A stretch of 64,000 nt of DNA from a virus (IMGVR_UViG_3300045988_037604), one strand, 5' to 3'. Positions 1,956 to 63,305 are shown, counted from the first letter of the stretch. Numbers and translations: made by a program. The notes: generated by a model from the sequence alone, not told the origin.

Positions 1956-1970
1956 CCCGCCCGTAGGAAG
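1956..1970 (-). repeat. GC-rich dispersed motif copy (variant CCCGCCCGTAGRA, intergenic)
   Basis: cccgcccgtaggaag begins on the base after the TAA stop at 1953-1955. Confidence 0.9.
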
Positions 1971-2000
1971 TATTGATATTAAATATTAGTTAAACTCTAA

Positions 2001-2048
2001 ATTACTATTGCTTAGATAGGTAGAAATGCTTATCTTTGCAATAGTAAT
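2001..2048 (+). promoter_or_regulatory. inverted repeat enclosing a Bacteroidota-type -7 box upstream of the tRNA
   Basis: Perfect 11-bp inverted repeat attactattgc (2001-2011) / gcaatagtaat (2038-2048). TATCTTTG at 2031-2038 matches TAnnTTTG and lies 18 nt before the tRNA 5' end. TTG lies 20 nt upstream of the box. Confidence 0.45.
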
Positions 2049-2055
2049 ATTTCAA

Positions 2056-2126
2056 TGGAGTATCGTATAATGGTAGTACAGAAGATTTTGGTTCTTCTAG
2101 CATAGGTTCGATTCCTATTACTCCAA
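2056..2126 (+). tRNA. tRNA-Gln (anticodon UUG)
   Basis: Hand-built 71-nt cloverleaf. Acceptor TGGAGTA/TACTCCA; D stem GTAT/GTAC (one G.T); anticodon stem GAAGA/TCTTC with loop TTTTGGT (anticodon TTG at 2088-2090); T arm ATAGG-TTCGATT-CCTAT; discriminator A. CCA is not encoded. Confidence 0.85.
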
Positions 2127-2214
2127 CTAATAGTAAAATTTAAGTTGTTACTTATAATGTTAGGTTAAGTGGTTAAAGATAGGCTGTTTTGAATGGTAAT
2201 TATCCCATGTTCGT

Positions 2215-2249
2215 CCCAAGGTTATCGTGATGATAATCTTGGGATTTTT
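2215..2249 (+). terminator. intrinsic terminator candidate closing the rightward block
   Basis: Stem CCCAAG (2215-2220) / CTTGGG (2238-2243) with a 17-nt loop, followed by ATTTTT. Confidence 0.5.
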
Positions 2250-2466
2250 CATATATGTCGGTTTCATGTCGCTGATAATAATTAAAAAAAAGGTGAAGCT
2301 CAACCTCACGGTCAAACTCCACCAAATAAAAATAGAAAACTAACAAAACAATTTAAATCACAATTTCTCTACAAATTTATATACTAATATGAAATTTAAT
2401 ATTTTAATTTCCTTTCTGAACGATTATTTATATCATGTTTAATAACTAATCATAATCGAATAATAA

Positions 2467-2566
2467 TTGTCATAGAAACAAATTATCAATGTATATTTCA
2501 AATTTTATCTATTATATGTAGTCGGCTAACAATTCATATTGATACAATAATTTGTTTCCATGTCAA
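2467..2566. repeat. long imperfect inverted repeat in the convergent intergenic zone
   Basis: ttgtcatagaaacaaattat (2467-2486) pairs with ataatttgtttccatgtcaa (2547-2566) at 18 of 20 positions. Spacer is 60 nt, with further tatcaat/attgata pairing inside. Confidence 0.7.
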
Positions 2567-4148: not shown

Positions 4149-4712
4149 TTAATTGTTTTCTCTTTGTCTTTGTTCTAAAATATCTTTTCTAAGTTTTCTA
4201 ATACTACCTCTATAAAGATAATTATGATTTATAACATAAGTATTCTTAGGAAGAATATTATTTGGTATTTTATCACATAGTCTTCCTATAACATCAAGTT
4301 CAACTAATCTTTTAATAGCTTTACTAATATGACTTTTATCACAATTATATTGTTTAGCAATAATAGAAGCATTTAAAGATAAGTGATTAACATTATAAGG
4401 AATATTATCTACGATATATCGTACAACAATACCTACATACTTAGATTCTTCACTAAGTATTGTAACTAGACTATTATCTATAAGCACCTTATCTTCCATA
4501 TAATAAATAGTTTTATTGTACTTATTTCCACTATCATCTTCATCTTTAATTCTAAGACCTTTTACAGATAGAGGATAGCTATAATCAATACTATCTTTAG
4601 CAAGTTTATTAATAACTTTATCATTCATATCTTTATCAATTTTATTAGCAACAATACAAAGATAATAAAAAGTAGCAGATTTTAGCCACATTTTTATAAA
4701 AAATAGCATCAA
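4149..4712 (-). CDS. putative winged-helix DNA-binding protein
   Basis: ORF-track ORF. The more likely start is ATG at 4628 (MNDKVINK...). The segment IAKQYNCDKSHISKAIKRLVELDVIGR looks like an HTH recognition unit. Confidence 0.45.
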   Translation of the reverse strand: MMLFFIKMWLKSATFYYLCIVANKIDKDMNDKVINKLAKDSIDYSYPLSVKGLRIKDEDDSGNKYNKTIYYMEDKVLIDNSLVTILSEESKYVGIVVRYIVDNIPYNVNHLSLNASIIAKQYNCDKSHISKAIKRLVELDVIGRLCDKIPNNILPKNTYVINHNYLYRGSIRKLRKDILEQRQRENN

Positions 4713-4896: not shown

Positions 4897-4912
4897 CCTC
4901 TCTACGGGGGGT
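4897..4912 (+). repeat. GC-rich dispersed motif copy (intergenic)
   Basis: cctctctacggggggt. Forms an inverted pair with the copy at 4983-5000. Confidence 0.9.
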
Positions 4913-4982
4913 TTCTAGTTCATCTAGTACTTCTAAAACTTCTAATGACATTATTAGACATATTAGTACTAAGATTAATATA

Positions 4983-5000
4983 GCCTGCCCGTAGGGAGAC
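4983..5000 (-). repeat. GC-rich dispersed motif copy (intergenic)
   Basis: gcctgcccgtagggagac, 19 nt beyond the stop of gene 5019..5297. Confidence 0.9.
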
Positions 5001-5297: not shown

Positions 5298-6342
5298 AAG
5301 CTATAACGTTATTAAGAGCTTTATTCATATTGTTATTAGCAGAACCCCAAACAAGAGAGTTCATTCTCTTTTCTCCTTCAAGATTTGCAACATTACAATA
5401 AAAGCCAGTAACGGCATTATAAGCACCCCAAGCAGTACCATAAATATCTTTCTGACCAATGCCATCATTATAATAATCAAACATATTAGAAAGAATATTA
5501 GCTTTTCTAGTAGATATTTCAGTTGCTTCAAGAAGTCTATAATCTCTATTGATAAGACGTTTAAAACCTGTTTTATTATCATATTGCATTATTTTTTGAA
5601 TTTCAGCAGGAGTTAATTGAAGATTACAAAGATATTCATAAACTTGTTCATCTTTCATAGTAACTTTAGCTAATTGTCTATACATTTCTTGAGCATCAAG
5701 AGCGTGTTCACAAGCAACTTTAAGAACTTGTGCTCCTAATTCAAGTTTTTCTTTTACAGACTTAGTATGACGAAGACGAATATGACAATCTGCTTTATTT
5801 ATAGCACCATTAAGCATATTAGTACATATAACTCTAACAGGTGTAATCATAATATCAACAGATGAATTACCATCATGTCCGTTACTAAATATAAGATAAT
5901 TATCTACCACATCATTACTATTAGCTACAGAAGTTTGTACAGGAAGTTTAGCACTTACATAAACTTTTTCGCCAAAGTTAAGACAAGCAGCTTTATCCCA
6001 CTTAGCAAGATTTTCACCAATAGCATTATTAAAGAAATTAAAAGCATCCATATTTTGAACAACTTCATATTTTTCTTTAACTAATCCTAAAGGATAATTA
6101 TTATCTGTACGATAAGTAGCATAAGCATTATTCATTTCTCTATAAATGTTTCCATCGTGTTGAAATGCGCAATCGTCTACATTATTATTTCCATTAATTC
6201 TAAATGGCATTTTAGCTACTAATTCGCATTTAGCTACAGACCAATCAAGTCCAGCTTTAGTCATAACTTCTTGAGCAGTTTGACAATTAGAAACGTCTTT
6301 ACCTAAAGCCCAAGGAAGACCACCAGTATTATATTTACTCAT
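5287..6342 (-). CDS. DUF932 / TIGR03299-like phage-plasmid protein
   Basis: 351 aa. The N-terminal pattern GLPWALGKDV...AGLDWSVAK and the size are typical of this family, recognised from memory. Confidence 0.5.
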   Translation of the reverse strand: MSKYNTGGLPWALGKDVSNCQTAQEVMTKAGLDWSVAKCELVAKMPFRINGNNNVDDCAFQHDGNIYREMNNAYATYRTDNNYPLGLVKEKYEVVQNMDAFNFFNNAIGENLAKWDKAACLNFGEKVYVSAKLPVQTSVANSNDVVDNYLIFSNGHDGNSSVDIMITPVRVICTNMLNGAINKADCHIRLRHTKSVKEKLELGAQVLKVACEHALDAQEMYRQLAKVTMKDEQVYEYLCNLQLTPAEIQKIMQYDNKTGFKRLINRDYRLLEATEISTRKANILSNMFDYYNDGIGQKDIYGTAWGAYNAVTGFYCNVANLEGEKRMNSLVWGSANNNMNKALNNVIAYAS

Positions 6343-10913: not shown

Positions 10914-12386
10914 TTAAACATTAATTGTTCCTACAGCACTAATAGTTTTTCCACTAGATAAATGAATCAAATGATTTTCCATACATTCAACAGTAGTTTT
11001 ATCTAGAGGAAAACTAAGTCTATCTTGCAGATTATAATATCTAGCAAAATTTTTAATATCATCAAACCATAATATGTGACACCCTATACAGAATTTCCAT
11101 TCTTTATAACCTAATTTATCAGGTCTATCACAATAACATCTAATAGCATCAACAAATTTATCTTCATAAGAAATACTTGATACACAAAATGAACCAATTC
11201 TAAATTCATCATGTTTAAAACTAAAAATAGTTTTACCACTAAGAATATAATTAGTATAAAGTTGATTAAATACATTAATAGCAACATCAAGAGGAACTAA
11301 AGCACCACGACTAGTTTCAACCCAATTAGGTCTACCAGGTTTAAGTCTAAGCTGAGTATTACTAAATTGATATTGTAATCTACGACGAATAGGAGTAATA
11401 GTTCTTTTCTTTTCATTGACATAATAATCAATATATGAAAGAATATTATTAGAATCACTTCCTTTTCTCCAATAATCAATATTATTCTTTGACTCAATTA
11501 AAGCAGCCCTACGATTAACTCCAGCTTTAATATTATATTTTTCTACTTTTTCAAGAAAAGCTTTATAATTAGCTTTATCTTTATCTTCTATTTCTTTAGC
11601 ATATTCATCAGACCATTTTTCATTAACTTCTTTCCAACTAATTCCTTTACAATAACAGAACTTTGTATAGAACTTACATTTCTTAATATGAAGTTTTTGT
11701 TCATCAGTAAACAAATTATCATTAAGAATATTTTTTATAGAAGGAAATGGAACTTTAAAATTACTAATATAAATATCTTTATTTGATAAACGTTTAACTT
11801 TAGGAACAAATCTATATTTATCAGCTAAATATTTTATTTCATTGAAATATTTAGTTCTATTACAAGTTGTATAACTATTATTAAGAATATATTTACTTAC
11901 ACTATTAAGTACTTTATACTCATTATAAAAAGTTTCAATATATTGTTTAATAATATATTTTATATGTGTATTAATAAGTATCTTTTTATTTTTTGTTTCA
12001 GTTATATTATAAATAGGAATAAGTTCATCAGTTTTATAAATACTATAACCACTAGGAAGACCTCTTTCAATATCCCAAGCATATTCAGTATCTACTTTAA
12101 TTACAGCTATTTTATGTTTACGGTCAATAATTGCCATACAAGAATCTTTAACTCCTTTATACCAATTTTCACTATCCCAATTATCTTTAATATATTCAGG
12201 AGTAAGTTTCTCACCTAAACTTTTACCTCTATGAAAGAAATAGCCATAACCAAAACAATAAGGATGATAAGTACTTTCAAACCATCCAGGTTCATCACGA
12301 TGAATACCTTCGTGAATACCTTCATGTTGACAAAATATATGTTTAATTCTTTTCTTAGGTTCAGCACCTACTTTACTTTTAACCAT
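10914..12386 (-). CDS. hypothetical protein (490 aa)
   Basis: Long ORF. Only a duplicated HEGIHEGIH near the N-terminus and a Cys/His cluster (CIGCH) near the C-terminus were noticed. Confidence 0.6.
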   Translation of the reverse strand: MVKSKVGAEPKKRIKHIFCQHEGIHEGIHRDEPGWFESTYHPYCFGYGYFFHRGKSLGEKLTPEYIKDNWDSENWYKGVKDSCMAIIDRKHKIAVIKVDTEYAWDIERGLPSGYSIYKTDELIPIYNITETKNKKILINTHIKYIIKQYIETFYNEYKVLNSVSKYILNNSYTTCNRTKYFNEIKYLADKYRFVPKVKRLSNKDIYISNFKVPFPSIKNILNDNLFTDEQKLHIKKCKFYTKFCYCKGISWKEVNEKWSDEYAKEIEDKDKANYKAFLEKVEKYNIKAGVNRRAALIESKNNIDYWRKGSDSNNILSYIDYYVNEKKRTITPIRRRLQYQFSNTQLRLKPGRPNWVETSRGALVPLDVAINVFNQLYTNYILSGKTIFSFKHDEFRIGSFCVSSISYEDKFVDAIRCYCDRPDKLGYKEWKFCIGCHILWFDDIKNFARYYNLQDRLSFPLDKTTVECMENHLIHLSSGKTISAVGTINV

Positions 12387-12675: not shown

Positions 12676-12694
12676 TTTCCTACGGGGCGGTTAT
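12676..12694 (+). repeat. GC-rich dispersed motif copy (variant, intergenic)
   Basis: tttcctacggggcggttat, 7 nt beyond the stop of gene 12701..13051. The leftward RNA would read CCGCCCCGUAGGAAA. Confidence 0.9.
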
Positions 12695-13054: not shown

Positions 13055-13483
13055 TTAATCATTATAAGTTTGAGTACAAAAATTAATATCATCATCATAG
13101 ATATTAAACTCATCAAGATTAATTACATAGCCCATATTATCTTCAGGAACAAATATTCCCAATTGAAGAACACCAACATTAATTTTAGAAGTAACATTAG
13201 CTGGTTTTTCAGATATAGATAAATCAAGTAATAATGAAATTATAGTCATTTTAGTAATAACACCTATATGTTTTTTAGGAATATATGTATTTCCATAAGT
13301 GTTAATACATCTTTCTTGATTAGTTGGAACATAATGAATTTTAGAACCTACTCTAAGACCAGAATGTTTATTAATTATTTCTCTTATAGAGAAATTAATA
13401 TTATCTTCTGTTTCTCCATTAATTCTCATTTGCTGTTCTTTAATATAAGCTTCAGCAATACCTTCTAAAAGACCTTCAATCAT
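13055..13483 (-). CDS. hypothetical protein
   Basis: 142-aa ORF in the array. Confidence 0.55.
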   Translation of the reverse strand: MIEGLLEGIAEAYIKEQQMRINGETEDNINFSIREIINKHSGLRVGSKIHYVPTNQERCINTYGNTYIPKKHIGVITKMTIISLLLDLSISEKPANVTSKINVGVLQLGIFVPEDNMGYVINLDEFNIYDDDINFCTQTYND

Positions 13484-15622: not shown

Positions 15623-16808
15623 AACTAAGAGTTTCTTTAATAAATTTATCTATTTCATCTTTAGTGTATTTATCATGCAAATCTGCAAAATCTTTACATC
15701 CATAATCACTAAGACCAAATTCACCACAAGTAATAAATAAATAAGGAATATTATATGTTTCTAGAAGATATTCAGCTCCTTCTCGACCAGTTCTGTCAAA
15801 ATCTAGAAAACTAAGTATCATTCCATTATTAGATAATTTCTTTTTTATCCATTCATATTCATTAGCTTTAAGTCTATAATTCTCACTAGGAAGATTAATT
15901 ACTCCTATTTTTAGAAGTTTTCCAGCCCCCCCGTAAAGAGGTTTGTTTGTTAAATGACTTCCTAAACTAAGTCTATCTTTACTACTTTTAGTAATTATAA
16001 TATAATCATAATCATCTAATTCAAGATTAGGTAGACCTTCGAGAACATTACAATTAGTAATAAACTTTAAATCAATATGTCTATTCCTAAGAGGAAAATA
16101 TAGTTTAATCAAATAAATACCTTGTTTATTTTGTCCAAGCATATAAGCATAACAAGGGTCTTTACTAACATATCTATATTTAGGTTCAGGATTAGAACTT
16201 CTATTGATGTAATATTGGTCAACAGGAATTACAAAATGAGTATTAAGATAAGCAAGATTTACATTCCATTTATCCCATATTCTTTTATCTTCTTTATTCC
16301 ATGAACGTGGAACAAGTTCAATAATAGCTTTACGATCTTTACTTTTAAATAAAGCATTTTTTATATCATCATCTGTAGAATAATCATGTTCACGATTATC
16401 TATAACATCTGCAAATGTTCTATAAATATGTTTTAATATAAAATAAAAATCTTGTTTGTTATCAGTACTAATAAGTCTTTCATAAGCAATACTAAGAACA
16501 TAAGCTACAACTCCATATACATCTTCAAAGAAACCAAAACCTCCAAAATCTCTGACTTTAAGTCTACCTTTTCTATTATAAGCAATACCCATACTACCAT
16601 CAGTATCATCATCTCTAAATACAGATTTTATAAGATTATTATGTTCAATACAATTTTGAACAGTTTCTATGGGAATATTTAGATATTTACTTACAATATC
16701 TTCTTGACTTATACGAGATTCAATAAATGCTTTAGTTAAATGAGCAGTATTTATATTTCGTTTCATATTATACTTAAAAAGAAAAGGGATAACATGAGTT
16801 GCACTCAC
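15537..16808 (-). CDS. DNA primase (Toprim-containing)
   Basis: 423 aa. Acidic Toprim-like motif FLDFDRTGREGA. Located among replication genes. Confidence 0.55.
   Translation of the reverse strand: MSATHVIPFLFKYNMKRNINTAHLTKAFIESRISQEDIVSKYLNIPIETVQNCIEHNNLIKSVFRDDDTDGSMGIAYNRKGRLKVRDFGGFGFFEDVYGVVAYVLSIAYERLISTDNKQDFYFILKHIYRTFADVIDNREHDYSTDDDIKNALFKSKDRKAIIELVPRSWNKEDKRIWDKWNVNLAYLNTHFVIPVDQYYINRSSNPEPKYRYVSKDPCYAYMLGQNKQGIYLIKLYFPLRNRHIDLKFITNCNVLEGLPNLELDDYDYIIITKSSKDRLSLGSHLTNKPLYGGAGKLLKIGVINLPSENYRLKANEYEWIKKKLSNNGMILSFLDFDRTGREGAEYLLETYNIPYLFITCGEFGLSDYGCKDFADLHDKYTKDEIDKFIKETLSYVELRYRKENLCNSDAYYERLSNFDLPY
15924..15941 (-). repeat. GC-rich dispersed motif copy (inside primase ORF, slightly degenerate)
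   Basis: agcccccccgtaaagagg. On the coding strand this reads CTTTACGGGGGGGCT and encodes LYGGA. Confidence 0.75.
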
Positions 16809-19790: not shown

Positions 19791-21203
19791 TTAATCTACA
19801 ATACAATAATCAGAATTATTATCAATTTTAACATCTATATCTTTTTTATTAACAATAACATGATTAGATGATAGTTGTTTATCATTGATTGCTTTTTCTT
19901 CTAATGTATTTTCGCAATAAAGACTATATAATATAATAGGTATATTAAACTTACATTTACTCAATCTGTATATATAAGATTTTATATCATCACAAAGACT
20001 TGACGTAATTATTAAAACGTCTACATCTATATTAAGTTCTTTATCAGGACTATTTGTTGTTGATATAATGCTTATTTTTCCAAGATTAAATAATTGTTGG
20101 ATAAGTTTCTTTTGGTTCGTTACACCCATTATTTTTTGCTTACCTTTCTTAGCTCCAGTTTTATAATAAATAGGATTACCATCCTTGTCTATAGCTGGAA
20201 TTGATTCTAATTTGTCATGAAAACTTTTACATACTTCTTTATTATATTTAATGTTTATATTATTAGTTAATTCATCTGCAAAATCTGCAAACTTATTTAT
20301 TATAAGAATCTTTTTATCTTTATAACTATCAATAATATCTATAATAGCATTAATCTTATTTGAATAATTAGCAAGAAGTCTAGCTCTTTTTCTAATCATT
20401 TCATAAGTAGAATTAGCTCTTTCTTTTATTGCTATAGGATTATAAAGCTTATCTATTTGTTGATTATATTCTGTACTCATATCTAGATATTCATTCCAAC
20501 CATTATCTCTAGCAAGTTTATCACAATATGCCATACTAGAAGCATTATTTGTGTTATTACCAGACATAGCAATTTTTATATTATCTAGACCTCCAAATAT
20601 ATTAAGTGACATTCTAATATTGTCATTATAGTATTGAAGAAGTTTAGCATCATTAGTATCATCTTTAATAGTGATAGGAATACGATACTCTTCTACGGGG
20701 GGGTTAGTACGAATATTATCGACATCATTTTGCTTAAACTCTTTAACAATAGGACAACAAGAATAAAAACTATCTTTAGTTCTACCATCAAGAGGTTTAG
20801 TAATAATTACTAATTTATATGTGCTTTTATCTAATATTCCTAAATGAACAAAAGTAAAACTAATAGGATTGTAAATAATAGTAAGAGTAGGTTTATACAG
20901 ATTAATATTATCAGCAACCCAACTATCAGTTAATACATGAATTTGTCCTTTATTAATCAAATTTAGAAAAATACTATCATAATTATTCTTTTGATTAGTA
21001 AGATATTCTTTGATATAATCTTTATCTTCAAAGTCTTTAACTAAAATAAGTACATTACACGTAGGACTTCTATTAAATAGTCTAGGAAGAAGAAGATAAA
21101 TAGGTCTAACACTATCTAAAGGATGAGGTATTAGAAGACTTCCATTACCATTACGAGCATTCCATCTTTCGATAGCATCATTAAACATTTCTTCTTGTGT
21201 CAT
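19791..21203 (-). CDS. hypothetical protein, weak SF2 helicase C-domain resemblance
   Basis: 470 aa. KILIINKFADFADEL and ISTTNSPDKELNIDVDVLIITSS resemble helicase motifs IV-VI. No Walker A was found. Confidence 0.3.
   Translation of the reverse strand: MTQEEMFNDAIERWNARNGNGSLLIPHPLDSVRPIYLLLPRLFNRSPTCNVLILVKDFEDKDYIKEYLTNQKNNYDSIFLNLINKGQIHVLTDSWVADNINLYKPTLTIIYNPISFTFVHLGILDKSTYKLVIITKPLDGRTKDSFYSCCPIVKEFKQNDVDNIRTNPPVEEYRIPITIKDDTNDAKLLQYYNDNIRMSLNIFGGLDNIKIAMSGNNTNNASSMAYCDKLARDNGWNEYLDMSTEYNQQIDKLYNPIAIKERANSTYEMIRKRARLLANYSNKINAIIDIIDSYKDKKILIINKFADFADELTNNINIKYNKEVCKSFHDKLESIPAIDKDGNPIYYKTGAKKGKQKIMGVTNQKKLIQQLFNLGKISIISTTNSPDKELNIDVDVLIITSSLCDDIKSYIYRLSKCKFNIPIILYSLYCENTLEEKAINDKQLSSNHVIVNKKDIDVKIDNNSDYCIVD
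20688..20706 (+). repeat. GC-rich dispersed motif copy (inside ORF)
   Basis: ctcttctacgggggggtta. The coding strand reads AACCCCCCCGTAGAAGAG and encodes NPPVEE. Confidence 0.9.
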
Positions 21204-23480: not shown

Positions 23481-24046
23481 ATAATATTAATTTCATATCC
23501 ATTATAATTATTATCTTTACTAGCACTATACCATTTAGTTAGATGATTACAAAATTCTTTATATTTATCATCATCTATGTATTTAATAAAAGGAGAATAA
23601 CTAACACAATATCCTCTAATATTACCATTATCTTTAGTAATATATAGTTTATCAGTTTTATTACTTATATCTGTTATAGATAAAAATAGTTTAGCTGCAT
23701 CACCAAGTAATAATATTTTTACGGCATGAGTATTAACAATATCTCTAATTGTATGTATAATACATCTACTAATAATATTACTATTTAGAGGACATTTATC
23801 AGTCAATTTACATCTAATAAGTGGAACTATAAAATAATCGTTTAGCCCCCCCGTAGAAGGACTTAATGCTTCATTTATTATTTCCACATATTTACTAAAT
23901 GTCATTCCTTTATTCTTATAAGCATTATAATCAACATTAGGTACAACTATTATTTTACCATAAAGAGGATTACCAACACCTTTAAGACAATGACATTTAT
24001 CATTAAATAGTCTTAGAGGACAATCTTTACATACATTATAAGTCAT
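23477..24046 (-). CDS. uracil-DNA glycosylase, family 4-like
   Basis: 189 aa starting with CKDCPL...GVGNPLYGKIIVVPNVD, like family-4 UDGs. Adjacent to the polymerase gene. Confidence 0.55.
   Translation of the reverse strand: MTYNVCKDCPLRLFNDKCHCLKGVGNPLYGKIIVVPNVDYNAYKNKGMTFSKYVEIINEALSPSTGGLNDYFIVPLIRCKLTDKCPLNSNIISRCIIHTIRDIVNTHAVKILLLGDAAKLFLSITDISNKTDKLYITKDNGNIRGYCVSYSPFIKYIDDDKYKEFCNHLTKWYSASKDNNYNGYEINII
23843..23862 (-). repeat. GC-rich dispersed motif copy (inside UDG-like ORF)
   Basis: tagcccccccgtagaaggac. The coding strand reads CCTTCTACGGGGGGGCTA and encodes PSTGGL. Confidence 0.9.
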
Positions 24047-27414: not shown

Positions 27415-27750
27415 TTAAGCTCCCCCATAGAGGAACTTAATAATGTCAGCATTTTCTTCTTCTATTTTCTTACAAGCATTAAGAATAACATCAATACTTT
27501 TATGTCTAACTTTAATTATATCTCTAATTACAGTAGTCATATCATGTTGACTTAATCTCATAAGATGATAAATTGTTTTAAAACCTTTACGAGTATTAAG
27601 AGAAAAGTTATAAGGAATAATATAACCTCTACGATGTGGAGGATTCTTATTAGTTTTAAGAACATAACCACTACATTCTACAACTTCTCCAAAAACAGGT
27701 CCACCACAATGTTTTAAATCATAATTATAAGCACAAGTAGTACATAACAT
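27415..27750 (-). CDS. hypothetical protein
   Basis: 111-aa ORF, Cys-rich at the N-terminus (CTTCAY...HCGG). Confidence 0.5.
   Translation of the reverse strand: MLCTTCAYNYDLKHCGGPVFGEVVECSGYVLKTNKNPPHRRGYIIPYNFSLNTRKGFKTIYHLMRLSQHDMTTVIRDIIKVRHKSIDVILNACKKIEEENADIIKFLYGGA
27418..27436 (-). repeat. GC-rich dispersed motif copy (degenerate, at ORF 3' end)
   Basis: agctcccccatagaggaac. The coding strand reads CTCTATGGGGGAGCT and encodes the C-terminal LYGGA. Confidence 0.6.
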
Positions 27751-31842: not shown

Positions 31843-31854
31843 AACAATAATATC

Positions 31855-31875
31855 TTTCTACGGGCGGGTTATACC
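31855..31875 (+). repeat. GC-rich dispersed motif copy (variant, intergenic)
   Basis: ctttctacgggcgggttatac, 30 nt beyond the stop of gene 31906..32340. The leftward RNA would read CCCGCCCGUAGAAAG. Confidence 0.9.
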
Positions 31876-36345: not shown

Positions 36346-36640
36346 TTTCATTATTAACTTTAACAATTTAATCTTCAATTTCATCATTCTAATTAATATC
36401 ATTATTATTTTTATCATCATCTTCTTTAATAGATTTATAATTATTATATTGACTTTTATTAATATTAGTATTAGCTTTATCATAAACCTTATTATAACAA
36501 TAATAATCATTATTATATATTATATCTTCATTTTATCTAATTATTATTTCATTAGTATTATCTATATAAATAGTATATATTTTGTCATTATAAGTATTAG
36601 AAGTTCTAGTCGAATCTTAAAGTATTAGATGTCTATAAAT

Positions 36641-36657
36641 CCCGCCCGTAGAAGGAC
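36641..36657 (-). repeat. GC-rich dispersed motif copy (variant, in hub)
   Basis: cccgcccgtagaaggac. Confidence 0.9.
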
Positions 36658-37998: not shown

Positions 37999-38559
37999 AT
38001 GACTAATCAGTGCGGAGATGAAGCCGTTGGAACAACGGCTGAAGCTCCAAACGGTAATACTTATAAAATTATGATTAAACCTGATGGTACAGAAATAAGA
38101 AAGTTTCCTAATGGTTATGATGTTAGAGTTGTAAGAAAACAAGACATTCTTAATTGTATAGATGAAAATATTATTGATAAAGAAATAGCTTTAGAACTTA
38201 TAACTCAATGTGAAATAGATGCTTGTCAATATATTAATGAAGGTAAATGGACTGGTCTTCCTTACATAGGTTCTGTTAGATTAAATGATGGAGGAAAGAT
38301 TTTAAGAGAAAATAAAGAATTACTTAATGAAGCTAAAGAAAAATTAGATGATGATAAATATATATTGTTTAAGAAGTCTTTAGTTATTGAAGGTAAAACT
38401 AAACTTAAAAAGTCTAGATATTTTAATTATATTGTTAGTATTTATGCTAATCATAATCGAAAAGTTTATAAAGAACTTGTAGCTAATAATGGTGAAAACT
38501 TTGCTAAAGTTATATTATTTAGTTTTGCTAATATGGAAGTAGTTGGTGATAATATTTAA
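37999..38559 (+). CDS. hypothetical protein
   Basis: 186-aa ORF. Confidence 0.6.
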   Translation: MTNQCGDEAVGTTAEAPNGNTYKIMIKPDGTEIRKFPNGYDVRVVRKQDILNCIDENIIDKEIALELITQCEIDACQYINEGKWTGLPYIGSVRLNDGGKILRENKELLNEAKEKLDDDKYILFKKSLVIEGKTKLKKSRYFNYIVSIYANHNRKVYKELVANNGENFAKVILFSFANMEVVGDNI

Positions 38560-41078: not shown

Positions 41079-41330
41079 ATGGGTGGACGTAATATTTTTA
41101 TAACTTTATATGGTATTCCTATAGCTATAGCTATTATAGGTTTATTGATATATAATTTTTATACTATTAAAGATAACAGTTATAAAGAAGATACAGTTAT
41201 AGAAAAAGTTAATGATAGTATTAAAGTTGAAGTTAAACAATTAGATAGTATTAAAAATGCAAAAGTTATTGAAGTTAAAACACTTGATAATGATAGTACT
41301 ATTAAGCTGTTCTACAAGCTTATCAAGTAG
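41079..41330 (+). CDS. N-terminal TM protein (holin or i-spanin-like)
   Basis: 83 aa with TM helix IFITLYGIPIAIAIIGLLIY followed by a charged periplasmic-type tail. Confidence 0.45.
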   Translation: MGGRNIFITLYGIPIAIAIIGLLIYNFYTIKDNSYKEDTVIEKVNDSIKVEVKQLDSIKNAKVIEVKTLDNDSTIKLFYKLIK

Positions 41331-41619
41331 AGGTCAAACAATATACTCTTCTACGGGGGGGTTTACAGATGATAGCGTTAAAGTTGCTATTAATGATTTA
41401 CGTAAAGCAAATATTAAACTTATACAATTAGATTATGAAAAAGATATTAATAAAAAACTTAGACGAATTATTGCAAATGATAGTGTACTTGCAGAACAAG
41501 CTAGACAAAGATATTTGGTACTGGATAGGTCATGCAAGAAAATAAAGAAACAACGTAATATTGGAGTAGGTGTTGCTATTGGCAGCATACTACTCCTTAT
41601 TGTTTCATTAATCAAGTAA
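41257..41619 (+). CDS. lipoprotein-like ORF with C-terminal TM (spanin-like), overlapping previous ORF out of frame
   Basis: 120 aa. Signal plus lipobox-like IVLLSC, a coiled middle part, and C-terminal IGVGVAIGSILLLIVSLI. Starts 74 nt inside the previous ORF. Confidence 0.4.
   Translation: MQKLLKLKHLIMIVLLSCSTSLSSRGQTIYSSTGGFTDDSVKVAINDLRKANIKLIQLDYEKDINKKLRRIIANDSVLAEQARQRYLVLDRSCKKIKKQRNIGVGVAIGSILLLIVSLIK
41346..41364 (+). repeat. GC-rich dispersed motif copy (inside ORF)
   Basis: ctcttctacgggggggttt, encoding SSTGGF. Lies 16 nt after the TAG stop of the overlapping ORF. Confidence 0.9.
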
Positions 41620-46754: not shown

Positions 46755-48107
46755 ATGTTTGTATTTCGTAATACTTTAGGTTTTTACCAACATAAAAGAC
46801 TTCAAAGTCCTGTTGGTGATATTGATTTTACTGGAGATGGTGGTGGTGTTACACCTCCTCCTTCAAATCCTCAAGATTCTCCTGATATAAATGGAGGTAA
46901 AGGAAGTGACATTAATGGTAATGACAATCCTGATAAAGATAATGATAAAGATAATCCTGATGGTGGTACAGAACCTCCTGCTAATGGTGGAGAAGGAAAA
47001 GATGGAAAAGGTGAAAAAGATAACAACCCTTCTACGGGGGAGCTTGAAGAAGGAACTAACATCGAATTAGATGGTGTGACTTATACTGTCGATAAAGATG
47101 GAAATGTTGTAGATGCTGATGGTAAGATTTTTAAAGAAGCTAAGTATGTTCAAGAATGGCTTAAAACTTTTAATGTAGATAATCAAAATCCTGAAGATAA
47201 AGAATTATCTATTGCTTCTATTCAAAAAGCTATTGGTGAAGAAATTGTTGATGAAAAAGGTCAACCTATTGAATTTACAAATGATGTAGAAGGAGTTAAA
47301 TCTTATATAGATAATGTTATTGCTCTTCGTTCTAATGAACTTCAGCAAGCAGCAGTTAATAAAGTATTTAATGATAATCCTATTCTCGCTCAATTTGCTA
47401 ATTATTTAGCTGTTACTGGTTCTCCTAGAGGCTTTGGAGAAATGCCTGATAGAAGTGGTATTAAACTTGATGCTAATAATGAAGAACAACAAATTGCTAT
47501 TATTAAAGCCGCTGCTAAAGAATTTGGAAATACTACACTTAATGATAATTACATTAAGTATTTGAAAGATGGTGGTGGACTTTATGATGAAGCTAAACTA
47601 CAGCTCCAAAATCTTCAAAATGCTGATAAACAACGTAATGAGGAATATGCTCGTCAAGCAGAAGCTCAACGTAAAGAAGAAGAAGAAGCTACTAATACCT
47701 ATTGGGAAAATGTTCATGAAAAACTTAATTCTCATAAGATTGGTGAATATCAACTTCCTGAATCTTTTGTTCGTGAAGTAAATGGTCAAAAAATTACTAC
47801 TACTATTGACGATTTCTTTAATTATATTTATAGAACTACGGAAGACGAAGATGGAAATTATACAACTGCTTATCAAAAAGACTTAAAGTCTAGAACAGCA
47901 GATGATAATATTAATGAACAACTTATTGCTGCATGGCTGACTTTTACAGGAGGAAGTTATAAAGACCTTGTGAATATGGCTGTTAGAGAAAAAGAAGTTA
48001 AAACTCTAAGACTTAAAGCTAAGGAAAATGATGGTCGTAAAACTGTTGTAATTACTAAACCAGCAAATGCTAATAAAACAATAGATATAGATAATCTAGT
48101 GTTTTAA
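46755..48107 (+). CDS. head-associated protein (scaffold-like?), disordered acidic N-terminus
   Basis: 450 aa. The first ~110 aa are G/D/N/P-rich. Has a coiled-coil segment QRNEEYARQAEAQRKEEEEA. Located between the portal and MCP genes. Confidence 0.55.
   Translation: MFVFRNTLGFYQHKRLQSPVGDIDFTGDGGGVTPPPSNPQDSPDINGGKGSDINGNDNPDKDNDKDNPDGGTEPPANGGEGKDGKGEKDNNPSTGELEEGTNIELDGVTYTVDKDGNVVDADGKIFKEAKYVQEWLKTFNVDNQNPEDKELSIASIQKAIGEEIVDEKGQPIEFTNDVEGVKSYIDNVIALRSNELQQAAVNKVFNDNPILAQFANYLAVTGSPRGFGEMPDRSGIKLDANNEEQQIAIIKAAAKEFGNTTLNDNYIKYLKDGGGLYDEAKLQLQNLQNADKQRNEEYARQAEAQRKEEEEATNTYWENVHEKLNSHKIGEYQLPESFVREVNGQKITTTIDDFFNYIYRTTEDEDGNYTTAYQKDLKSRTADDNINEQLIAAWLTFTGGSYKDLVNMAVREKEVKTLRLKAKENDGRKTVVITKPANANKTIDIDNLVF
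47027..47045 (+). repeat. GC-rich dispersed motif copy (inside ORF)
   Basis: cccttctacgggggagctt, encoding PSTGEL. Confidence 0.9.
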
Positions 48108-52578: not shown

Positions 52579-52615
52579 CAGCTCTTCTACGGGGGAGCTG
52601 TATTTATTTATTTAT
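52579..52615 (+). terminator. terminator-like hairpin built from a GC-rich motif copy
   Basis: CAGCTCTTC-TACG-GGGGAGCTG (52579-52600), a 9-bp stem including two G.U pairs with a UACG loop, followed by tatttatttatttat. Confidence 0.6.
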
Positions 52616-52625
52616 GTAAAATACT

Positions 52626-53249
52626 ATGGGTGACTTTAATGAAGTTAATCAAGTAGTTAATGATGCTATTAAAGATTCATCTTATATTACGGTTTTAATA
52701 AGTAGTGGAATTTATATAGCTTATACTCTTATAGTTAAAATAGTTGATTTGTTTAAAGCTAAAGATAGAAATAAGCCTATTATCGAAATGGCTTCTGCTA
52801 TCAAACAAGTTAGTGAAAACGTAGTTAAACTTAATGGAGTTTTAGATAAAGCTTTCCAAGATGCTGAAAGTAAAGAACAAGATAAAATAAAAAATGTTAT
52901 TGTATTAGGTTTTGATAGTTTTAAAGTTAATGTGAGTAATATTTGTAATAGTATTATAATTCACAATAATATTGATACTAATAAAGACTTAATAAAACAA
53001 AATGTTTTTAGATTAGTAAGTACTGAATATTATAAACTATATAATGTTTTTTCAGCTTATGAAATAAATGGAGTTAATATTTCTACCAAACTTAAAGATG
53101 AATGGATAGATGATATAACTAAAGAATGTTTAGATATAATCTATAATGGTCAAGATGCTTTAATTAGAATTAGTCAACTTACTAATCGTCTTGACATTAT
53201 TGCAGATGAACATTCTGTTTTTGTAAATAATAAAGTTTTTAATCATTAA
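52626..53249 (+). CDS. hypothetical protein with N-terminal TM helix
   Basis: 207 aa with YITVLISSGIYIAYTLIV. Confidence 0.55.
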   Translation: MGDFNEVNQVVNDAIKDSSYITVLISSGIYIAYTLIVKIVDLFKAKDRNKPIIEMASAIKQVSENVVKLNGVLDKAFQDAESKEQDKIKNVIVLGFDSFKVNVSNICNSIIIHNNIDTNKDLIKQNVFRLVSTEYYKLYNVFSAYEINGVNISTKLKDEWIDDITKECLDIIYNGQDALIRISQLTNRLDIIADEHSVFVNNKVFNH

Positions 53250-53495: not shown

Positions 53496-54062
53496 ATGAA
53501 TGATAATATAAATAACCCCCCCGTAGAAGGTATGGATGCTTCTACACTTAATGCGGTTAATTCTCCATATAATGAAGTTTATGTTGAGAATGATGAATAT
53601 GATGCAGGTACTAATATAGATGTTGAAGTTGTATATCTTACTATTCCTACTAAATGGATTCCTGTTTATCGTAAATTACTTAGTCTTGTAGCTAATGGAG
53701 GTAAAGCTATTCTTGATGATTGTAATTATGGTTGCAAAGGTAATGGTAGTATTGTATTTAATTGTTGGAATATATTTCAATCTGCTTGTGCTGCTCATAC
53801 TGAAGGAAAAGAAGATGAAGCAAATTTGTTTATAGATTATGTTTCTAAACAAATAGATGCTTATAATAAATCAAATAGTATTATAGTAAATGATAGTAAT
53901 TTTAAATATACTATTACTCCTGATGGTAAAGCTAAAGCTGATGGAGTTATTGAAGATAATGTTGTAAGTTTAAGTCTTGATAAAGAAAATAAAGAAGCTT
54001 ATGATAATTATCAAGCAAATAAAGATAATGGTAAAATTTATGTTGAACAAGATAATGAATAA
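53496..54062 (+). CDS. hypothetical protein
   Basis: 188-aa ORF. Confidence 0.55.
   Translation: MNDNINNPPVEGMDASTLNAVNSPYNEVYVENDEYDAGTNIDVEVVYLTIPTKWIPVYRKLLSLVANGGKAILDDCNYGCKGNGSIVFNCWNIFQSACAAHTEGKEDEANLFIDYVSKQIDAYNKSNSIIVNDSNFKYTITPDGKAKADGVIEDNVVSLSLDKENKEAYDNYQANKDNGKIYVEQDNE
53514..53532 (-). repeat. GC-rich dispersed motif copy (inside ORF, codons 7-12)
   Basis: aacccccccgtagaaggta, encoding NPPVEG. Confidence 0.9.
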
Positions 54063-58134: not shown

Positions 58135-58174
58135 CGTAGAAGAGTAATACTAAACACTCTTCTACGTGGGGGTT
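58135..58174 (+). terminator. hairpin formed by a GC-rich motif copy and an inverted half-copy
   Basis: CGTAGAAGAGT (58135-58145) pairs with ACTCTTCTACG (58156-58166), 11 bp. The 3' arm continues as tgggggtt, completing the motif ctcttctacgtgggggtt. Confidence 0.6.
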
Positions 58175-59961: not shown

Positions 59962-59970
59962 GGAGGTATT

Positions 59971-62088
59971 ATGGATTTTAGTAAAGTAACTGCATTACAA
60001 ATACCTGAAGGTAATGTAACTAAAATAGAAGATAAAGAAGGTAATATTCTTTGGGCTAGTATTAATAAACTTGCTTATGGAGTTCGTTGGGATTCTGTCA
60101 ATCAAGCTACTACTGCTTGTGAAAGAATTGGTAATCTTGAATTTCATAAAACTCTTCCTATTCAAAGTAGGTTTAAAGTCTGTATTCATAAAGGTAAAGA
60201 AATTCAATATTATTGTAATCCAATTGATAGTAGATTTGTTGAAGAAAGTAAAAGAATTCGATTTACACACCAAGGAACTGATTTAAATATTACTGCTTGT
60301 GATGGTCTCCCTGCTGGTGTTGTATCTTGTGAAGAAGATAGTGTAGTTAAATGCAAGTTTATAAATACAACTTTATTTTCTAACTATAGATTTCTATATT
60401 CTTATGTTCTTGTACAAAGTAATACATCAGAACACACAGCTGTTGGTAGAATTGTTTATATTGATACAAATAAAGGAGAAGCTTATATAGATGATTCGGA
60501 TGATATACCTTATAGTACTTATACTAAAGGCGATAAATCTGAGCCATATTATATATATGACACATTAAATGATTATCCTGAATTTGATACTAATTGCACT
60601 GTTGAACTTGGTTGTTCTATTAATGGTTATGATGGAGAAATAGGAGTTGATACAGGTGGCAAATTTTATCAATGGTCTGTAGATAAAGATGGTGCTGGTA
60701 ATGAAGTTTGGCAAAGTCTTCATAAATGTGTTCCTTATGCCAGAGAAATAAAAAGACATATTATTGGTATAGATAGAGCTTGTGTTCTTAATGTTGCTTT
60801 TAATGATGCTAAATGGGGTTGGATTGGTAGTCTAGAAGCTAATACAGCAGTAAATGTTATTAATTATCATACTAATCTTAGAGGTGGAACTAATACTACT
60901 ACTTTTGATAAATACTTAGGAGTTGATTCTTTTAGATGCCAACTTGGTAAAGCTAGAACTAATCTTAATCTTGCTACAATGAGAAGTTACTCTCAAAAGA
61001 CAGATGGTGGGCAAATGCTTTATAAACAGATTTGGGAAGCTATTGTTTGGAGTTATGTTATTGAATATGCAGACTTCGATGTAAAGAAAGAATATACTAA
61101 TTCACTTACTACTGAAGGTTATCATCAAGGAGGATTAGGTAATGGACTTACTGGAGGAAATGACTTAAGCCATTATAACGGTAGTGAAAAGTTTGCTCCT
61201 AATGATTATACTCTCGCATTAGGCAATAATATTGGCATTAAAATTAGAGCTGCTAGACAATGGGATATTCGAGTTGCTGCTAATCATTATTGGAATAACT
61301 ATACTATTGATAATAGTATGCTAACTGCTTTAGATGGTAGTTATAAAGTTCTTACCATTATAAATATTATGAATCCTAATACAGATTATAATATTAAGGC
61401 TTCAGGTAATGTTGTTGGAGGAACAGTTAAATATAAAATTACTGGACTTACTGGTGGTCAAACTGTAGTATTTAAAAGAGAAAAAGGCAATTTAACTATA
61501 ACAACTGATGGAACCTATGATGTAGAATGGGGTACAAGTAATGTCGAAAGAAAGATTTATTTTAATGAATTTCAGTCTAGTTGTAATATAGTTATTGAAA
61601 TTCTTTCTGCTCCTAGTTATAATATAATTCAAGGAAATCAAGTTGCTTGGAATGTTCCTCATTGGAGAGGATTTAATGTTTTTTGGTATGGAGATACTTA
61701 TATTAATATAGATAATATGTTAAGTAAATATGATACTACTAAACAAAAGAGAATTTTCTATTATACAGATGATGTTACTAAATTTAGTGATGATATTAGT
61801 AATAAAGAACATCAAATAGAAAGTTTTACTAAGATAGATAATGAGGATTGGTTAAGAGAAGTAAGAATAAATAATAAAGGAGATATATTTCCTGTTAAAA
61901 ATACAATTATTAATGTTTATAAACACGCTGTAAATATGAGTTCCAAAGACACCAACGTTATTGCTACTTATATTGGTGGTTCAAATGCCATTAGGACAAA
62001 TAGTATCTTTTCTTTTTATTTAAAATATCTTGTTGCTGCAAATTATACTGAAGTAGGTTTTGTTAAGGTTACAATTTTAGATACTTAA
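59971..62088 (+). CDS. tail fibre / receptor-binding protein (putative)
   Basis: 705 aa, preceded by AAGGAGGT. Large, beta-rich, and positioned after a fibre-like gene. Confidence 0.5.
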   Translation: MDFSKVTALQIPEGNVTKIEDKEGNILWASINKLAYGVRWDSVNQATTACERIGNLEFHKTLPIQSRFKVCIHKGKEIQYYCNPIDSRFVEESKRIRFTHQGTDLNITACDGLPAGVVSCEEDSVVKCKFINTTLFSNYRFLYSYVLVQSNTSEHTAVGRIVYIDTNKGEAYIDDSDDIPYSTYTKGDKSEPYYIYDTLNDYPEFDTNCTVELGCSINGYDGEIGVDTGGKFYQWSVDKDGAGNEVWQSLHKCVPYAREIKRHIIGIDRACVLNVAFNDAKWGWIGSLEANTAVNVINYHTNLRGGTNTTTFDKYLGVDSFRCQLGKARTNLNLATMRSYSQKTDGGQMLYKQIWEAIVWSYVIEYADFDVKKEYTNSLTTEGYHQGGLGNGLTGGNDLSHYNGSEKFAPNDYTLALGNNIGIKIRAARQWDIRVAANHYWNNYTIDNSMLTALDGSYKVLTIINIMNPNTDYNIKASGNVVGGTVKYKITGLTGGQTVVFKREKGNLTITTDGTYDVEWGTSNVERKIYFNEFQSSCNIVIEILSAPSYNIIQGNQVAWNVPHWRGFNVFWYGDTYINIDNMLSKYDTTKQKRIFYYTDDVTKFSDDISNKEHQIESFTKIDNEDWLREVRINNKGDIFPVKNTIINVYKHAVNMSSKDTNVIATYIGGSNAIRTNSIFSFYLKYLVAANYTEVGFVKVTILDT

Positions 62089-62402
62089 ATTGATTGTTTT
62101 CATATTTAATAAACTAAAGTTATTACAACTATATAACTTATTAGAAAGCAAGGAGATATAATTCTTCTTGCTTCTTTTGTTATTGATAGTATTGATGATA
62201 ATGTTGATAATAATACTGATAATGATATAATTGATGATTAATAAAATTTATTTTTATTTATATGGCTTATTTTCGCTTTGTCTGTAAGTCTTTAATTATC
62301 AAGCTGATTAATTATTCATCGAATGTTAATAAGACGATTTGTGCACGCACACAGATAGTAATTTGATGACATCATGGATTTGGATAAATGGTTTCAAAGT
62401 TT

Positions 62403-62410
62403 TACCTTTG
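62403..62410 (+). promoter_or_regulatory. candidate Bacteroidota-type -7 box (rightward)
   Basis: TACCTTTGC in the 530-nt gap, ~210 nt before the ATG at 62619. Confidence 0.35.
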
Positions 62411-62555
62411 CCCCTACTAAAGGGACATCAAAAGACATCTAATAGATAAAGTTACTAATAGACTTATAGATGAAACTTTAAATGATAATAAGCCTCCTCG
62501 TTAAGAAGTTGATGATTACCTAAGTAATAGAGATAGAACTCAAACCAAACATCAA

Positions 62556-62576
62556 CATTCTTCTACGGGGGGGCTT
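62556..62576 (+). repeat. GC-rich dispersed motif copy (in 5' leader)
   Basis: attcttctacggggggggctt, flanked by aacatt/aatgtt, which can close a stem. Confidence 0.9.
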
Positions 62577-62618
62577 TAATGTTTTATTAATATTCATATT
62601 ACTAATAATGTTAAAGCT

Positions 62619-63305
62619 ATGGCTAGTATTGCAATGATGGTTAGTGAATTAGCTCATTCTTTAGGTCAACCTAATAATCATGCTTTAAGAGAAAATCTAA
62701 AACTTCTTGTTATTCAAACTCGTAATGAATATATTAGAAGAAGTTATGAAAATCATGGTTATGTAGATAAAGGTCTTACTCAAAGATTTAGAGTTACTTT
62801 AACTGACGTTAATGATGGTGATATAGTTCTACCTGATTCTATCAAAGATTTTGTTGCTATTGATAAAATTAAAAGAACTACTGAAAAAGTTCCTAGACCT
62901 GTTAGACTTACTAATAATCTTCCTTTTGATAGAGTTAGTTCTGTAGGTTATGCTACTAATAGAGAATTTCCTTATATTAAAGAAACTACTGCTAGATTTA
63001 GAAATTCTGTTCCTGGTCTTTGTGGTGCTATTAGTTACGATTATATTAATGAATATATCTATTTATATCCCCCCCGTAGAAGAGCTTTTGATTTACAACA
63101 AATAGTTATTGAGAGTTCTTTTGAACATCCAAATGAAATATCATTTAATAATGGAGAAATAGATAATAATAATCTTATATATGATGATAATGAATATCTT
63201 ATACCTGAAGATATGTATGGAACTATAAAAGATATTATTTATAAACGTGATTTATTAAATCAACATCGAGAAACTGATGAAACTCCTAATAATATTAAAT
63301 TTTAA
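62619..63305 (+). CDS. virion structural protein (putative)
   Basis: 228-aa ORF. Confidence 0.55.
   Translation: MASIAMMVSELAHSLGQPNNHALRENLKLLVIQTRNEYIRRSYENHGYVDKGLTQRFRVTLTDVNDGDIVLPDSIKDFVAIDKIKRTTEKVPRPVRLTNNLPFDRVSSVGYATNREFPYIKETTARFRNSVPGLCGAISYDYINEYIYLYPPRRRAFDLQQIVIESSFEHPNEISFNNGEIDNNNLIYDDNEYLIPEDMYGTIKDIIYKRDLLNQHRETDETPNNIKF
63069..63085 (-). repeat. GC-rich dispersed motif copy (inside ORF)
   Basis: cccccccgtagaagagc, encoding PPRRRA. Confidence 0.9.

Follow-up and report, generated by a model that had tools for sequence, protein, structure and literature searches.

An evenly spaced, strand-specific G-rich word dispersed through the genomes of Intestiviridae crAss-like phages

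Uptake sequences, such as the uptake signal sequence (USS) of Haemophilus and the DNA uptake sequence (DUS) of Neisseria, comprise a core of about 10-12 nt with flanks, occur in both orientations and lie more evenly than chance would place them; they are tolerated in open reading frames (ORFs) in particular frames and form inverted pairs in intergenic DNA, traits that Smith in 1995 and Karlin in 1996 are said to have described. The complementary-strand origin of G4 and the ssiA and ssiB sites of RSF1010 are strand-specific, single-stranded signals that are read by primase, and RSF1010 carries one per strand. Certain phages carry nick sites, whose consensus is 5'-TACTRTGMC-3' in tf and 5'-CGACxxxxxCCTACTCCGG-3' in phiKMV-like phages and whose function is still unknown (PMC3517423). 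Here we describe a G-rich word of 16-20 nt that is dispersed through a 64,000-nt stretch of viral DNA (IMGVR_UViG_3300045988_037604; this whole stretch is called the window below) and, in lineage-specific versions, through all Intestiviridae genomes examined, following up an earlier note that had been drawn from the window sequence alone. Each DNA strand has its own evenly spaced series of copies, and judging from sequence comparison the word appears to be a functional signal, so far undescribed, that machinery of the phage itself reads.

In the human gut no viruses are more abundant than the crAss-like phages. According to a 2023 review, how they replicate is unknown (PMC10136315). The word was not found described in the crAss literature that we searched (full text, including the sequence together with 'crAss'), a search of incomplete coverage that leaves a prior description possible; this literature included the phi14:2 polymerase study (10.1101/2020.03.07.982082), the gut crAss comparative study, the crAssphage culturing study, the crAss001 transcriptome paper and the 2023 review (PMC10136315). 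The earlier note, which knew of no described element of this kind in crAss-like phages, agrees with this outcome.

The word in the window and across Intestiviridae

By sequence similarity the window phage is an Intestiviridae (Obtuvirinae) crAss-like phage, in keeping with the AT-rich crAss-like phage that the earlier note had recognized: its GC content is 24-34%, and among deposited genomes crAssphage cr8_1 (Crassvirales, Intestiviridae, Obtuvirinae) comes closest, with ~79% nucleotide identity in structural genes. Relatives of the window at 83-89% identity are present in IMG/VR, and other gut metagenomes carry a primase that is 98% identical to that of the window. The plus strand carries the genes at 36-1955 and again those from 37.4 kb onward, and the minus strand those over ~2.9-36.1 kb.

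All 18 copies that had been listed from the sequence are present, with coordinates right within 1-4 nt; 10 lie on the plus and 8 on the minus strand (Table 1), and their consensus over the 64 kb is YCTTCTACGGGGGGG. Exact CTACGGGGG occurs nine times, compared to 0.01 expected from dinucleotide-preserving shuffles, and TCTACGGGGGG with up to two mismatches gives 18 matches against 0.85 expected, a number that none of 100 shuffles reached. Chance and base composition are thereby ruled out as the source of the word, the outcome that the earlier note had anticipated when proposing such shuffles. Seventeen of the 18 matches are the copies themselves and the extra one, at 55497, is probably due to chance, while the degenerate variant CCCTACGGGCAGG at 4983-5000 was confirmed by reading the sequence. 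Runs of at least five G or C number 13 in the window, 12 of them inside copies of the word; the 13th, at 36264-36268, is indeed the single exception that had been noticed. The proposed split into 10 intergenic copies and 8 inside ORFs was roughly right, a recount giving 8-9 intergenic copies in a window of which only ~9% is non-coding.

Every Intestiviridae genome examined carries its own variant, in 17-31 copies per genome of ~93 kb, or one copy per ~3-4 kb. The family consensus is YCTTC-TAYG-GGGGGG with lineage-specific flanks, ~16-20 nt in all. Within Obtuvirinae, cr8_1 has 26-27 copies (consensus cATACCTTTTACGGGG(C/G)GGCTAGA; version CCTTTTACGGGGSGGCTAGA) and cr271_1 has 17 (consensus CTCTTCTACGGGGGAGC). 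Churivirinae are represented by crAss002, with 29 copies (consensus CTCCTT-TA(C/T)G-GGGGAA; version CTCCTTTAYGGGGGAA), and Crudevirinae by Carjivirus communis, the prototypical crAssphage, with 31 copies (consensus tCCATCCTC(T/C)ACGGGG(G/A)GT(C/A); version CCATCCTCYACGGGGRGT). Within one genome the copies change together, even at orthologous sites, and since all copies of a genome follow the version of its lineage, the reader of the word is probably encoded by the phage and co-evolves with it. Among the roles that the earlier note had offered, a recognition site for a phage-encoded protein fits best with this lineage-specific consensus and concerted change. The lineage-specific consensus could also aid classification.

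Searching 50,697 phage records by BLAST with the crAssphage version returned crAss-like matches plus one weak match to a Pectobacterium phage, and the window 14-mer gave only scattered matches in 185,579 species genomes, one per stretch in all but one case, which rules out a host repeat. In a sequence logo of 166 unique copies from AT-rich loci, information is confined to positions -9 to +15 relative to the TACG centre; the G run is followed by C-T-A-g-A, and neither a T-run up to +39 nor promoter hexamers appear.

The phage crAss001 (Steigviridae, NC_049977, first 100 kb) is without the TACGGGG word and has a dispersed 9-mer of its own, CTTCTGGAG, in 27 copies compared to ~2 expected. This 9-mer has a sense:antisense ratio of 13:14, a per-strand coefficient of variation (CV) of spacing of 0.52 (P ~0.001) and a minimum same-strand gap of 1537 nt (P ~0.002); it has the CTTCT start and the GG.G end in common with the Intestiviridae word, and the same layout. 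An analogous system, built on another word, thus seems to exist in a different family. Cellulophaga phage phi14:2 (NC_021806) has no strongly over-represented dispersed 9-mer, the best ratio being ~10 and without strand pattern, which rules out generality across the order Crassvirales; the phenomenon may be limited to phages of gut Bacteroidales.

In crAssphage and crAss002, some copies, mostly intergenic, are followed within 60 nt by a second GC-rich hairpin that holds GAGCGAAGCG or GCGTAGCG, the GCGAAGC mini-hairpin sequence. Sequences of the GCGAAGC type adjoin a copy of the word in 9 of 10 cases in crAssphage and 6 of 10 in crAss002, compared to 0.4 expected, and none is found in the window. 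Examples lie at 6026-6075, 28083-28000, 28177-28230 and 95869-95920 in crAssphage, and at 4214-4260, 47844-47890 and 86218-86170 in crAss002.

Spacing, orientation and selection

When the site lists were compared with the annotations, sense:antisense ratios were 11:7 in the window, 12:12 in cr8_1, 10:7 in cr271_1, 19:12 in crAssphage and 15:14 in crAss002, in total 67:52; the five genomes share ancestral sites, and their statistics of spacing and orientation are therefore not independent replicates. Orientation is nearly independent of gene direction, and the earlier observation that the window copies occur in both orientations relative to transcription is borne out. As a control, other over-represented 9-mers in these genomes merely follow the coding strand.

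Along each strand the copies are regularly spaced, at a density of about one per 5-7 kb. The CV of within-strand spacing is 0.37-0.56, compared to 0.84-0.91 when copies are placed at random (P<=0.001 for four of the five genomes; 0.42 with P=0.0007 in the window), and the smallest same-strand gap is 2-3.5 kb against a random median of 140-440 nt. However, copies on opposite strands come as close as 19-90 nt, and once both strands are pooled, regularity drops markedly (CV 0.63-0.69). Along the genome the copies also alternate in orientation more than they would if strands were assigned at random. Rotating the minus-strand series relative to the plus-strand one reproduces this alternation, which is hence no property of its own but a by-product of even spacing per strand. 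The layout consists of one evenly spaced series per strand, with neither series depending on the other. Given that spacing matters along one strand, the reader probably works along single strands. Strand-specific sites on both strands, a feature expected of single-strand initiation signals, are thus present, and so is a layout like that of uptake sequences (both orientations, even spread, copies tolerated in ORFs in restricted frames), the latter as a resemblance of layout only, since phages have no machinery for DNA uptake.

These spacing data bear on three alternative readings. The copies might be duplex-DNA recognition sites for an architectural or translocating protein (virion IHF/HU-like proteins, terminase or the ejection machinery), comparable to uptake sequences. 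A long asymmetric word with high information over 16-20 bp, its lineage-specific consensus, the even spacing and the in-ORF copies in restricted frames would all suit such a binder, and IHF-like virion proteins are encoded by all these phages. It should, however, hardly care which strand bears the G run, and the regularity that falls off on pooling, together with opposite orientations 19-90 bp apart and same orientations never closer than 2 kb, makes this reading quite unlikely.

Single-strand interruptions, introduced by a phage nickase and sealed by a phage ligase as in T5, phiKMV-like phages and tf, are a second candidate. Known nick sites have an asymmetric consensus of 9-20 nt in 4-14 copies, lie at similar positions in relatives and vary slightly in consensus (PMC3517423), traits held in common with the word, and an ATP-dependent DNA ligase is present in all Intestiviridae examined. 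The known cases occupy one strand only (PMC3517423), whereas here both strands are used about equally, and opposite-strand copies 19-41 nt apart in AT-rich DNA would, if both were nicked, amount to a staggered double-strand break; nicking at every copy is therefore unlikely. Genes of HNH endonucleases are sporadic, and the ORFs adjacent to the ligase gene (13055-13483 in the window, gp25 in crAssphage) are without an HNH motif, which removes the HNH endonuclease as a candidate reader. We judge nicking as a whole distinctly unlikely.

Third, the word could be a Chi-like polar signal that modulates a strand-tracking exonuclease or helicase (AddAB/RecBCD-type of the host, or the phage exonuclease with RecT), so that a correctly oriented site lies within a few kb of any break. 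A frequency of ~1 per 5-7 kb per strand, evenly spread in both orientations, is what protection from either end would need, and genes for an exonuclease, RecT and a Gam-like inhibitor are present in these phages. However, known Chi sites are 5-8 nt long and set by the enzyme of the host. In the present word conservation spans 16-20 nt, phages whose Bacteroides/Phocaeicola hosts are closely related have different versions of it, and its 14-mer is not enriched in bacterial genomes; we regard a Chi-like role as very unlikely.

Conservation of place is extensive. Among the 18 window sites, 15 have an alignment with relatives at 68-89% identity in which the word is kept, and mapping by tblastx places a same-strand copy at 14 of 18 sites in cr8_1 and at 9 in cr271_1, so that the synteny on which the earlier note had made its reading depend is found. 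Copies on the same strand are found in all three subfamilies at three sites, namely those in the primase gene (sense), the SNF2 helicase gene (antisense) and the gene intervening between portal and capsid (sense). The site before the terminase gene maps in cr8_1, cr271_1 and crAss002, and in crAssphage it recurs by gene position: gp78, the neighbour of the terminase gene, has a sense copy at its start (91293).

Over ~50 site-by-relative alignments below 90% identity, the flanks are 62-76% identical, compared to 90-100% at positions 0 to +6 and 82-88% at -4 to -2. Copies inside ORFs translate as STGG, LYGG, PPVE or PPRR, with four frames in use. The primase copy lies in an indel-rich linker, where crAss002 reads LRGN in another frame while the others read LYGG, and in the helicase copy the lineage-specific flank alters the neighbouring amino acids with PVEE constant. 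The four reading frames and the frame shift at the orthologous primase site rule out a peptide motif. Given the fact that the core is more constrained than its flanks while the frames shift, selection acts on the nucleic acid, and on these alignments the word is shown to be a cis-acting signal conserved by selection. Such DNA-level selection overrides protein sequence in core genes, those of primase, helicase and uracil-DNA glycosylase (UDG).

These same alignments weigh on the suggestion of a small mobile element, a GC-rich unit such as a GC cluster, a miniature inverted-repeat transposable element (MITE) or a repetitive extragenic palindromic (REP)-like sequence that had spread through the genome. 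It has on its side that the word is a GC-rich island in AT-rich DNA, that there is some turnover of sites (copy 63067..63083 is absent and copy 47028..47044 decayed in cr8_1, which also has extra copies), that close inverted pairs resemble REP doublets, and that homogeneity within a genome could stem from gene conversion. However, orthology extends across genera for most sites and across three subfamilies for some, about half of the copies fall inside ORFs, with in-frame copies in the primase, helicase and UDG genes, and the core is more constrained than the flanking coding sequence. Moreover, the copies have only ~16 nt in common, no target-site duplications, wider bodies or other insertion footprints were noticed in the inspected alignments, and even spacing per strand is not expected of a selfish insert. 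As the sites are syntenic across subfamilies and in frame in essential genes, the mobile GC cluster suggested in the earlier note is largely refuted, and a mobile element of any such kind is most improbable.

Hairpin potential and candidate readers

The G-rich strand can be drawn as a stem of 5-6 bp, in which a pyrimidine arm faces the G run with G.U or G.T pairs under a C(YACG)G cap; the complementary strand cannot fold likewise, owing to C.A mismatches. C(UACG)G is found in most window copies, and UACG or CACG in crAssphage, while UAUG takes its place in 15 of 29 crAss002 copies and in window copy 27418..27434. Among 122 copies, 74-100% allow pairs -1:4 to -5:8 to form, but shifting the partner by 1-3 nt permits equally good pairing, because any pyrimidine faces the G run, and a C.C or C.A mismatch stands at -4:+7 in about half of the cr8_1 and crAssphage copies. 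In folding, the shuffle z is <=2, and swapping halves between copies weakens the fold slightly (P 0.04-0.83; 0.04-0.18 in four of five genomes). Compensatory changes in support of the stem were limited, over the 122 copies, to lineage-level hints: -5 is T when +8 is A (cr271_1 and crAss002), and -6:+9 is A:T in 27 of 31 crAssphage copies. We regard hairpin structure in the word as possible. The UNCG-type fold that the earlier note had seen has its C-UACG-G centre, but the slid-register and mismatch controls lend it no support; the flank-extended stems are real at 37978 and 52579, yet they are not as frequent as had been supposed, occurring at these two and at copy 27418..27434 and not generally.

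An RNA hairpin would be formed if the transcribed G strand folded into this 5-6 bp stem with G.U pairs and a UNCG/YNMG-type C(YACG)G cap, serving as a 3'-end stabilizer, a processing site or a terminator/attenuator for transcripts of both strands. That only the G strand can fold, that the loop is UACG or CACG in four lineages, the pairing hints at -5 and +8 and at -6 and +9 and the small effect of half-swaps are in its favour, as are several intergenic sense copies 6-46 nt upstream of start codons and a slight sense excess. However, the copies are not confined to the transcribed strand, almost half of them (52 of the 67:52 over five genomes) being antisense to every annotated gene, which speaks against the RNA stability or processing hairpin that had been proposed. 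The slid registers, the -4:+7 mismatches and the UAUG loops in about half of the crAss002 copies also count against it; no U-tract follows the word, Rfam at gathering threshold matched tRNA-Gln only and no family to the word, and even spacing along the antisense strand has no obvious RNA rationale. We judge this reading unlikely.

Intrinsic terminators and promoters are ruled out, there being no T-run or hexamers beside the word. A signal for the virion RNA polymerase, in the manner of an N4-type hairpin promoter, had also been among the suggested roles; the copies lie throughout the replication and structural modules and on both strands, which argues against it. In phi14:2, early transcripts have no common upstream motif and middle promoters are sigma70-like (10.1101/2020.03.07.982082).

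Taken together, a strand-specific word, an even series per strand, no tie to transcription, deep conservation and concerted change fit best with a process that serves one strand at a time. We tentatively favour a single-strand start or loading site for the replication-recombination machinery of the phage, with a rough probability of 0.35, the mechanism being something that we infer. Under this proposal, the duplex would be opened and the G-rich strand bound in linear form or folded into a short C(YAYG)G hairpin that includes G.T/G.U pairs; the bound site would then prime synthesis of the complementary strand, or load a helicase or recombinase, and as a result no stretch of either strand would go unserved beyond a few kb. 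A candidate reader would be the Toprim primase (phrog_12622), whose PHROG family is named 'DNA primase' and which has a Toprim-like DxD motif (LDFDRTGR); it gave no Pfam hit and no PDB sequence match. A RepB'-like archaeo-eukaryotic primase (AEP), at which a 'relaxase' note in cr8_1 hints, was set aside, as the protein has the Toprim-like DxD motif instead.

Several points weigh against the start or loading site. Primases of the DnaG/Toprim type are known to recognize trinucleotides, normally, and not 16-20-mers, a DNA hairpin with 2-3 T.G pairs would be unstable, and the covariation is weak. The phage crAss001, with a DnaB/DnaG-type replisome, has an analogous word, while phi14:2, with a similar replisome, is without one, and hence presence of a word does not track an obvious set of replication genes. 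Moreover, copies are five-fold enriched in intergenic DNA, which a gene-expression signal would also show, although this enrichment could arise from the cost of placing copies in ORFs alone.

A broader formulation, to which we give somewhat less than an even chance, is that of a 'strand punctuation' system, in which a word of 16-20 nt, evenly spaced per strand and lineage-specific, as old as the family and running through essential genes, would be read by a phage-encoded machine. If true, strand punctuation would be a new class of cis-element that organizes replication, recombination or genome handling in genomes of ~95 kb. For such phages, ~25 conserved, strand-specific and evenly placed sites offer a concrete handle on replication, and the word can be tested in culture, since among its carriers are crAss002, for which a cultured host exists, and the recently cultured Carjivirus communis.

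Window copies, neighbouring genes and comparison with known systems

Table 1. Copies of the word in the window (coordinates counted from the first nucleotide of the 64,000-nt stretch; L075 is an IMG/VR relative, and L004 and L054 are further relatives).
Coordinates	Strand	Form of the word	Location	Orientation	Counterparts
1954..1970	-	variant CTTCCTACGGGCGGGTT	junction of the giant plus-strand gene (ends 1955) and the minus-strand block, beside tRNA-Gln		same place and strand in cr8_1, cr271_1
4898..4914	+	CCTCTCTACGGGGGGTT		antisense to local genes	kept in L075
4982..4998	-	degenerate TCTCCCTACGGGCAGGC	intergenic	sense	L075 carries CTTCCTACGGGCGGGC
12676..12692	+	ATTTCCTACGGGGCGGT	intergenic	antisense	same place and strand in cr8_1, cr271_1
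15924..15940	-		primase gene, codons 291-294 read LYGG	sense	same place in cr8_1, cr271_1, crAssphage, crAss002
20689..20705	+		SNF2-type helicase gene, ~510 nt from start, read PPVE	antisense	same gene, place and strand in all five Intestiviridae genomes
23844..23860	-		uracil-DNA glycosylase gene, codons 64-67 read STGG	sense	same codon position in cr8_1, cr271_1
27418..27434	-	CCTCTATGGGGGAGC, TATG centre	3' end of ORF 27415-27750		counterpart in cr8_1
31854..31870	+	CTTTCTACGGGCGGGTT	intergenic	antisense	
36639..36655	-		divergent region, upstream of minus-strand gene block	sense	kept in L054, L004
37979..37995	+	CTCTCTACGGGGAGGCT	6 nt upstream of ATG of ORF 37999-38559	sense	kept in cr8_1, L054, L004
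41347..41363	+		before gene preceding terminase gene	sense	kept in 10 aligned relatives; same place and strand in cr8_1, cr271_1, crAss002
47028..47044	+		gene between portal and major capsid protein, codons 93-96 read STGE	sense	same place in cr271_1, crAssphage, crAss002; decayed in cr8_1
52583..52599	+	CTCTTCTACGGGGGAGC	intergenic, 30 nt upstream of ORF 52626-53249; flanks extend 9-bp stem		
53514..53530	-		near 5' end of ORF 53496-54062, read PPVE	antisense	
58158..58174	+	CTCTTCTACGTGGGGGT, one G-to-T change	intergenic	sense	relatives have TACGGGGCGG
62559..62575	+		intergenic, upstream of ORF 62619-63305	sense	same place in cr8_1, cr271_1
63067..63083	-		inside ORF 62619-63305, read PPRR	antisense	none at aligned cr8_1 place (site turnover)

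The copies at 4898 and 4982 form a close opposite-strand pair, 85 nt apart. The copy at 41347 was counted inside ORF 41257-41619, yet an in-frame ATG at ~41369 lies ~8 nt downstream, and the copy may be upstream of the true start and hence intergenic; the deposited start of crAssphage gp78 likewise runs through, or begins a few nt upstream of, a copy of the word. Homopolymers of G7 or C7 lie inside ORFs, including those of primase, helicase and UDG, at 15926-15932, 20697-20703, 23846-23852, 41355-41361, 53516-53522 and 63069-63075. Their length is constant at 4 aligned sites among few near-identical relatives (six contigs for primase, one each for the three others). Inside essential ORFs such homopolymers easily give rise to slippage and sequencing errors, and they are likely to cause false frameshifts and gene-calling errors in assemblies.

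The plus-strand ORF at 36-1955 is the C-terminal end of a giant gene that is truncated, since the window starts inside it; its cr8_1 counterpart, gp93, is 13 kb long and annotated 'nuclear pore complex-like protein', and judged from size and position this is probably the crAss virion RNA polymerase gene. A tRNA-Gln gene (anticodon TTG) at 2056-2127 (+), ~90 nt from the first copy, is annotated at the corresponding place after the giant gene in both cr8_1 and cr271_1. In the replication module, ORF 10914-12386 (-), of 490 aa, gave no Pfam hit and a weak PHROG hit to phrog_7247, of unknown function, and no counterpart was identified in the annotation table of cr8_1. The DNA polymerase of cr271_1 is annotated as two coding sequences, 33336-34385 and 34777-36033, with ~390 nt between them, which suggests an intron, an intein or an assembly frameshift.

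Among known systems, the nick sites of T5/BF23, phiKMV-like phages and the tf/LUZ24 group are like the crAss word in their short asymmetric consensus, in positions kept among relatives and in a consensus that varies slightly. They number from a handful to 14 and lie on one strand, whereas the crAss word occurs 17-31 times on both strands, in equal, independent and even series. Uptake sequences occur in thousands and serve DNA uptake by competent bacteria, whereas the crAss word numbers ~25 copies, its carrier is a virulent phage or a phage-plasmid, and its reader is probably encoded by the phage. The ssi signals are structured hairpins of 40-100 nt that are present once or twice per replicon, while the crAss word has 16-20 nt and at best a wobble-rich stem of 5-6 bp, repeated ~25 times. 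Chi is similar in being polar, on one strand and found at ~1 per 5 kb; it is, however, 5-8 nt long, host-defined and biased with replication direction, and the crAss word is longer, specific to the phage lineage and unbiased.

The C-(U/C)ACG-G centre, the pyrimidine 5' arm and the G-rich 3' arm recall the UNCG/YNMG tetraloops of RNA, from which the word differs by the absence of convincing covariation, by frequent mismatches and UAUG loops and by an orientation that is not tied to transcription. REP elements and bacterial interspersed mosaic elements (BIMEs) with their REP-associated tyrosine transposases (RAYTs), the GC clusters of yeast mitochondria and the Rickettsia palindromic elements (RPEs) are likewise short, dispersed, GC-rich repeats, sometimes in inverted doublets, and RPEs can sit in ORFs. 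Such elements are mobile or show presence and absence, with bodies of 30-150 nt, unlike the crAss word with its ~16 common nt, orthologous sites and even spacing. The layout of the word thus resembles that of nick sites and of uptake sequences without their defining features, and there is a substantial chance that it represents something new.

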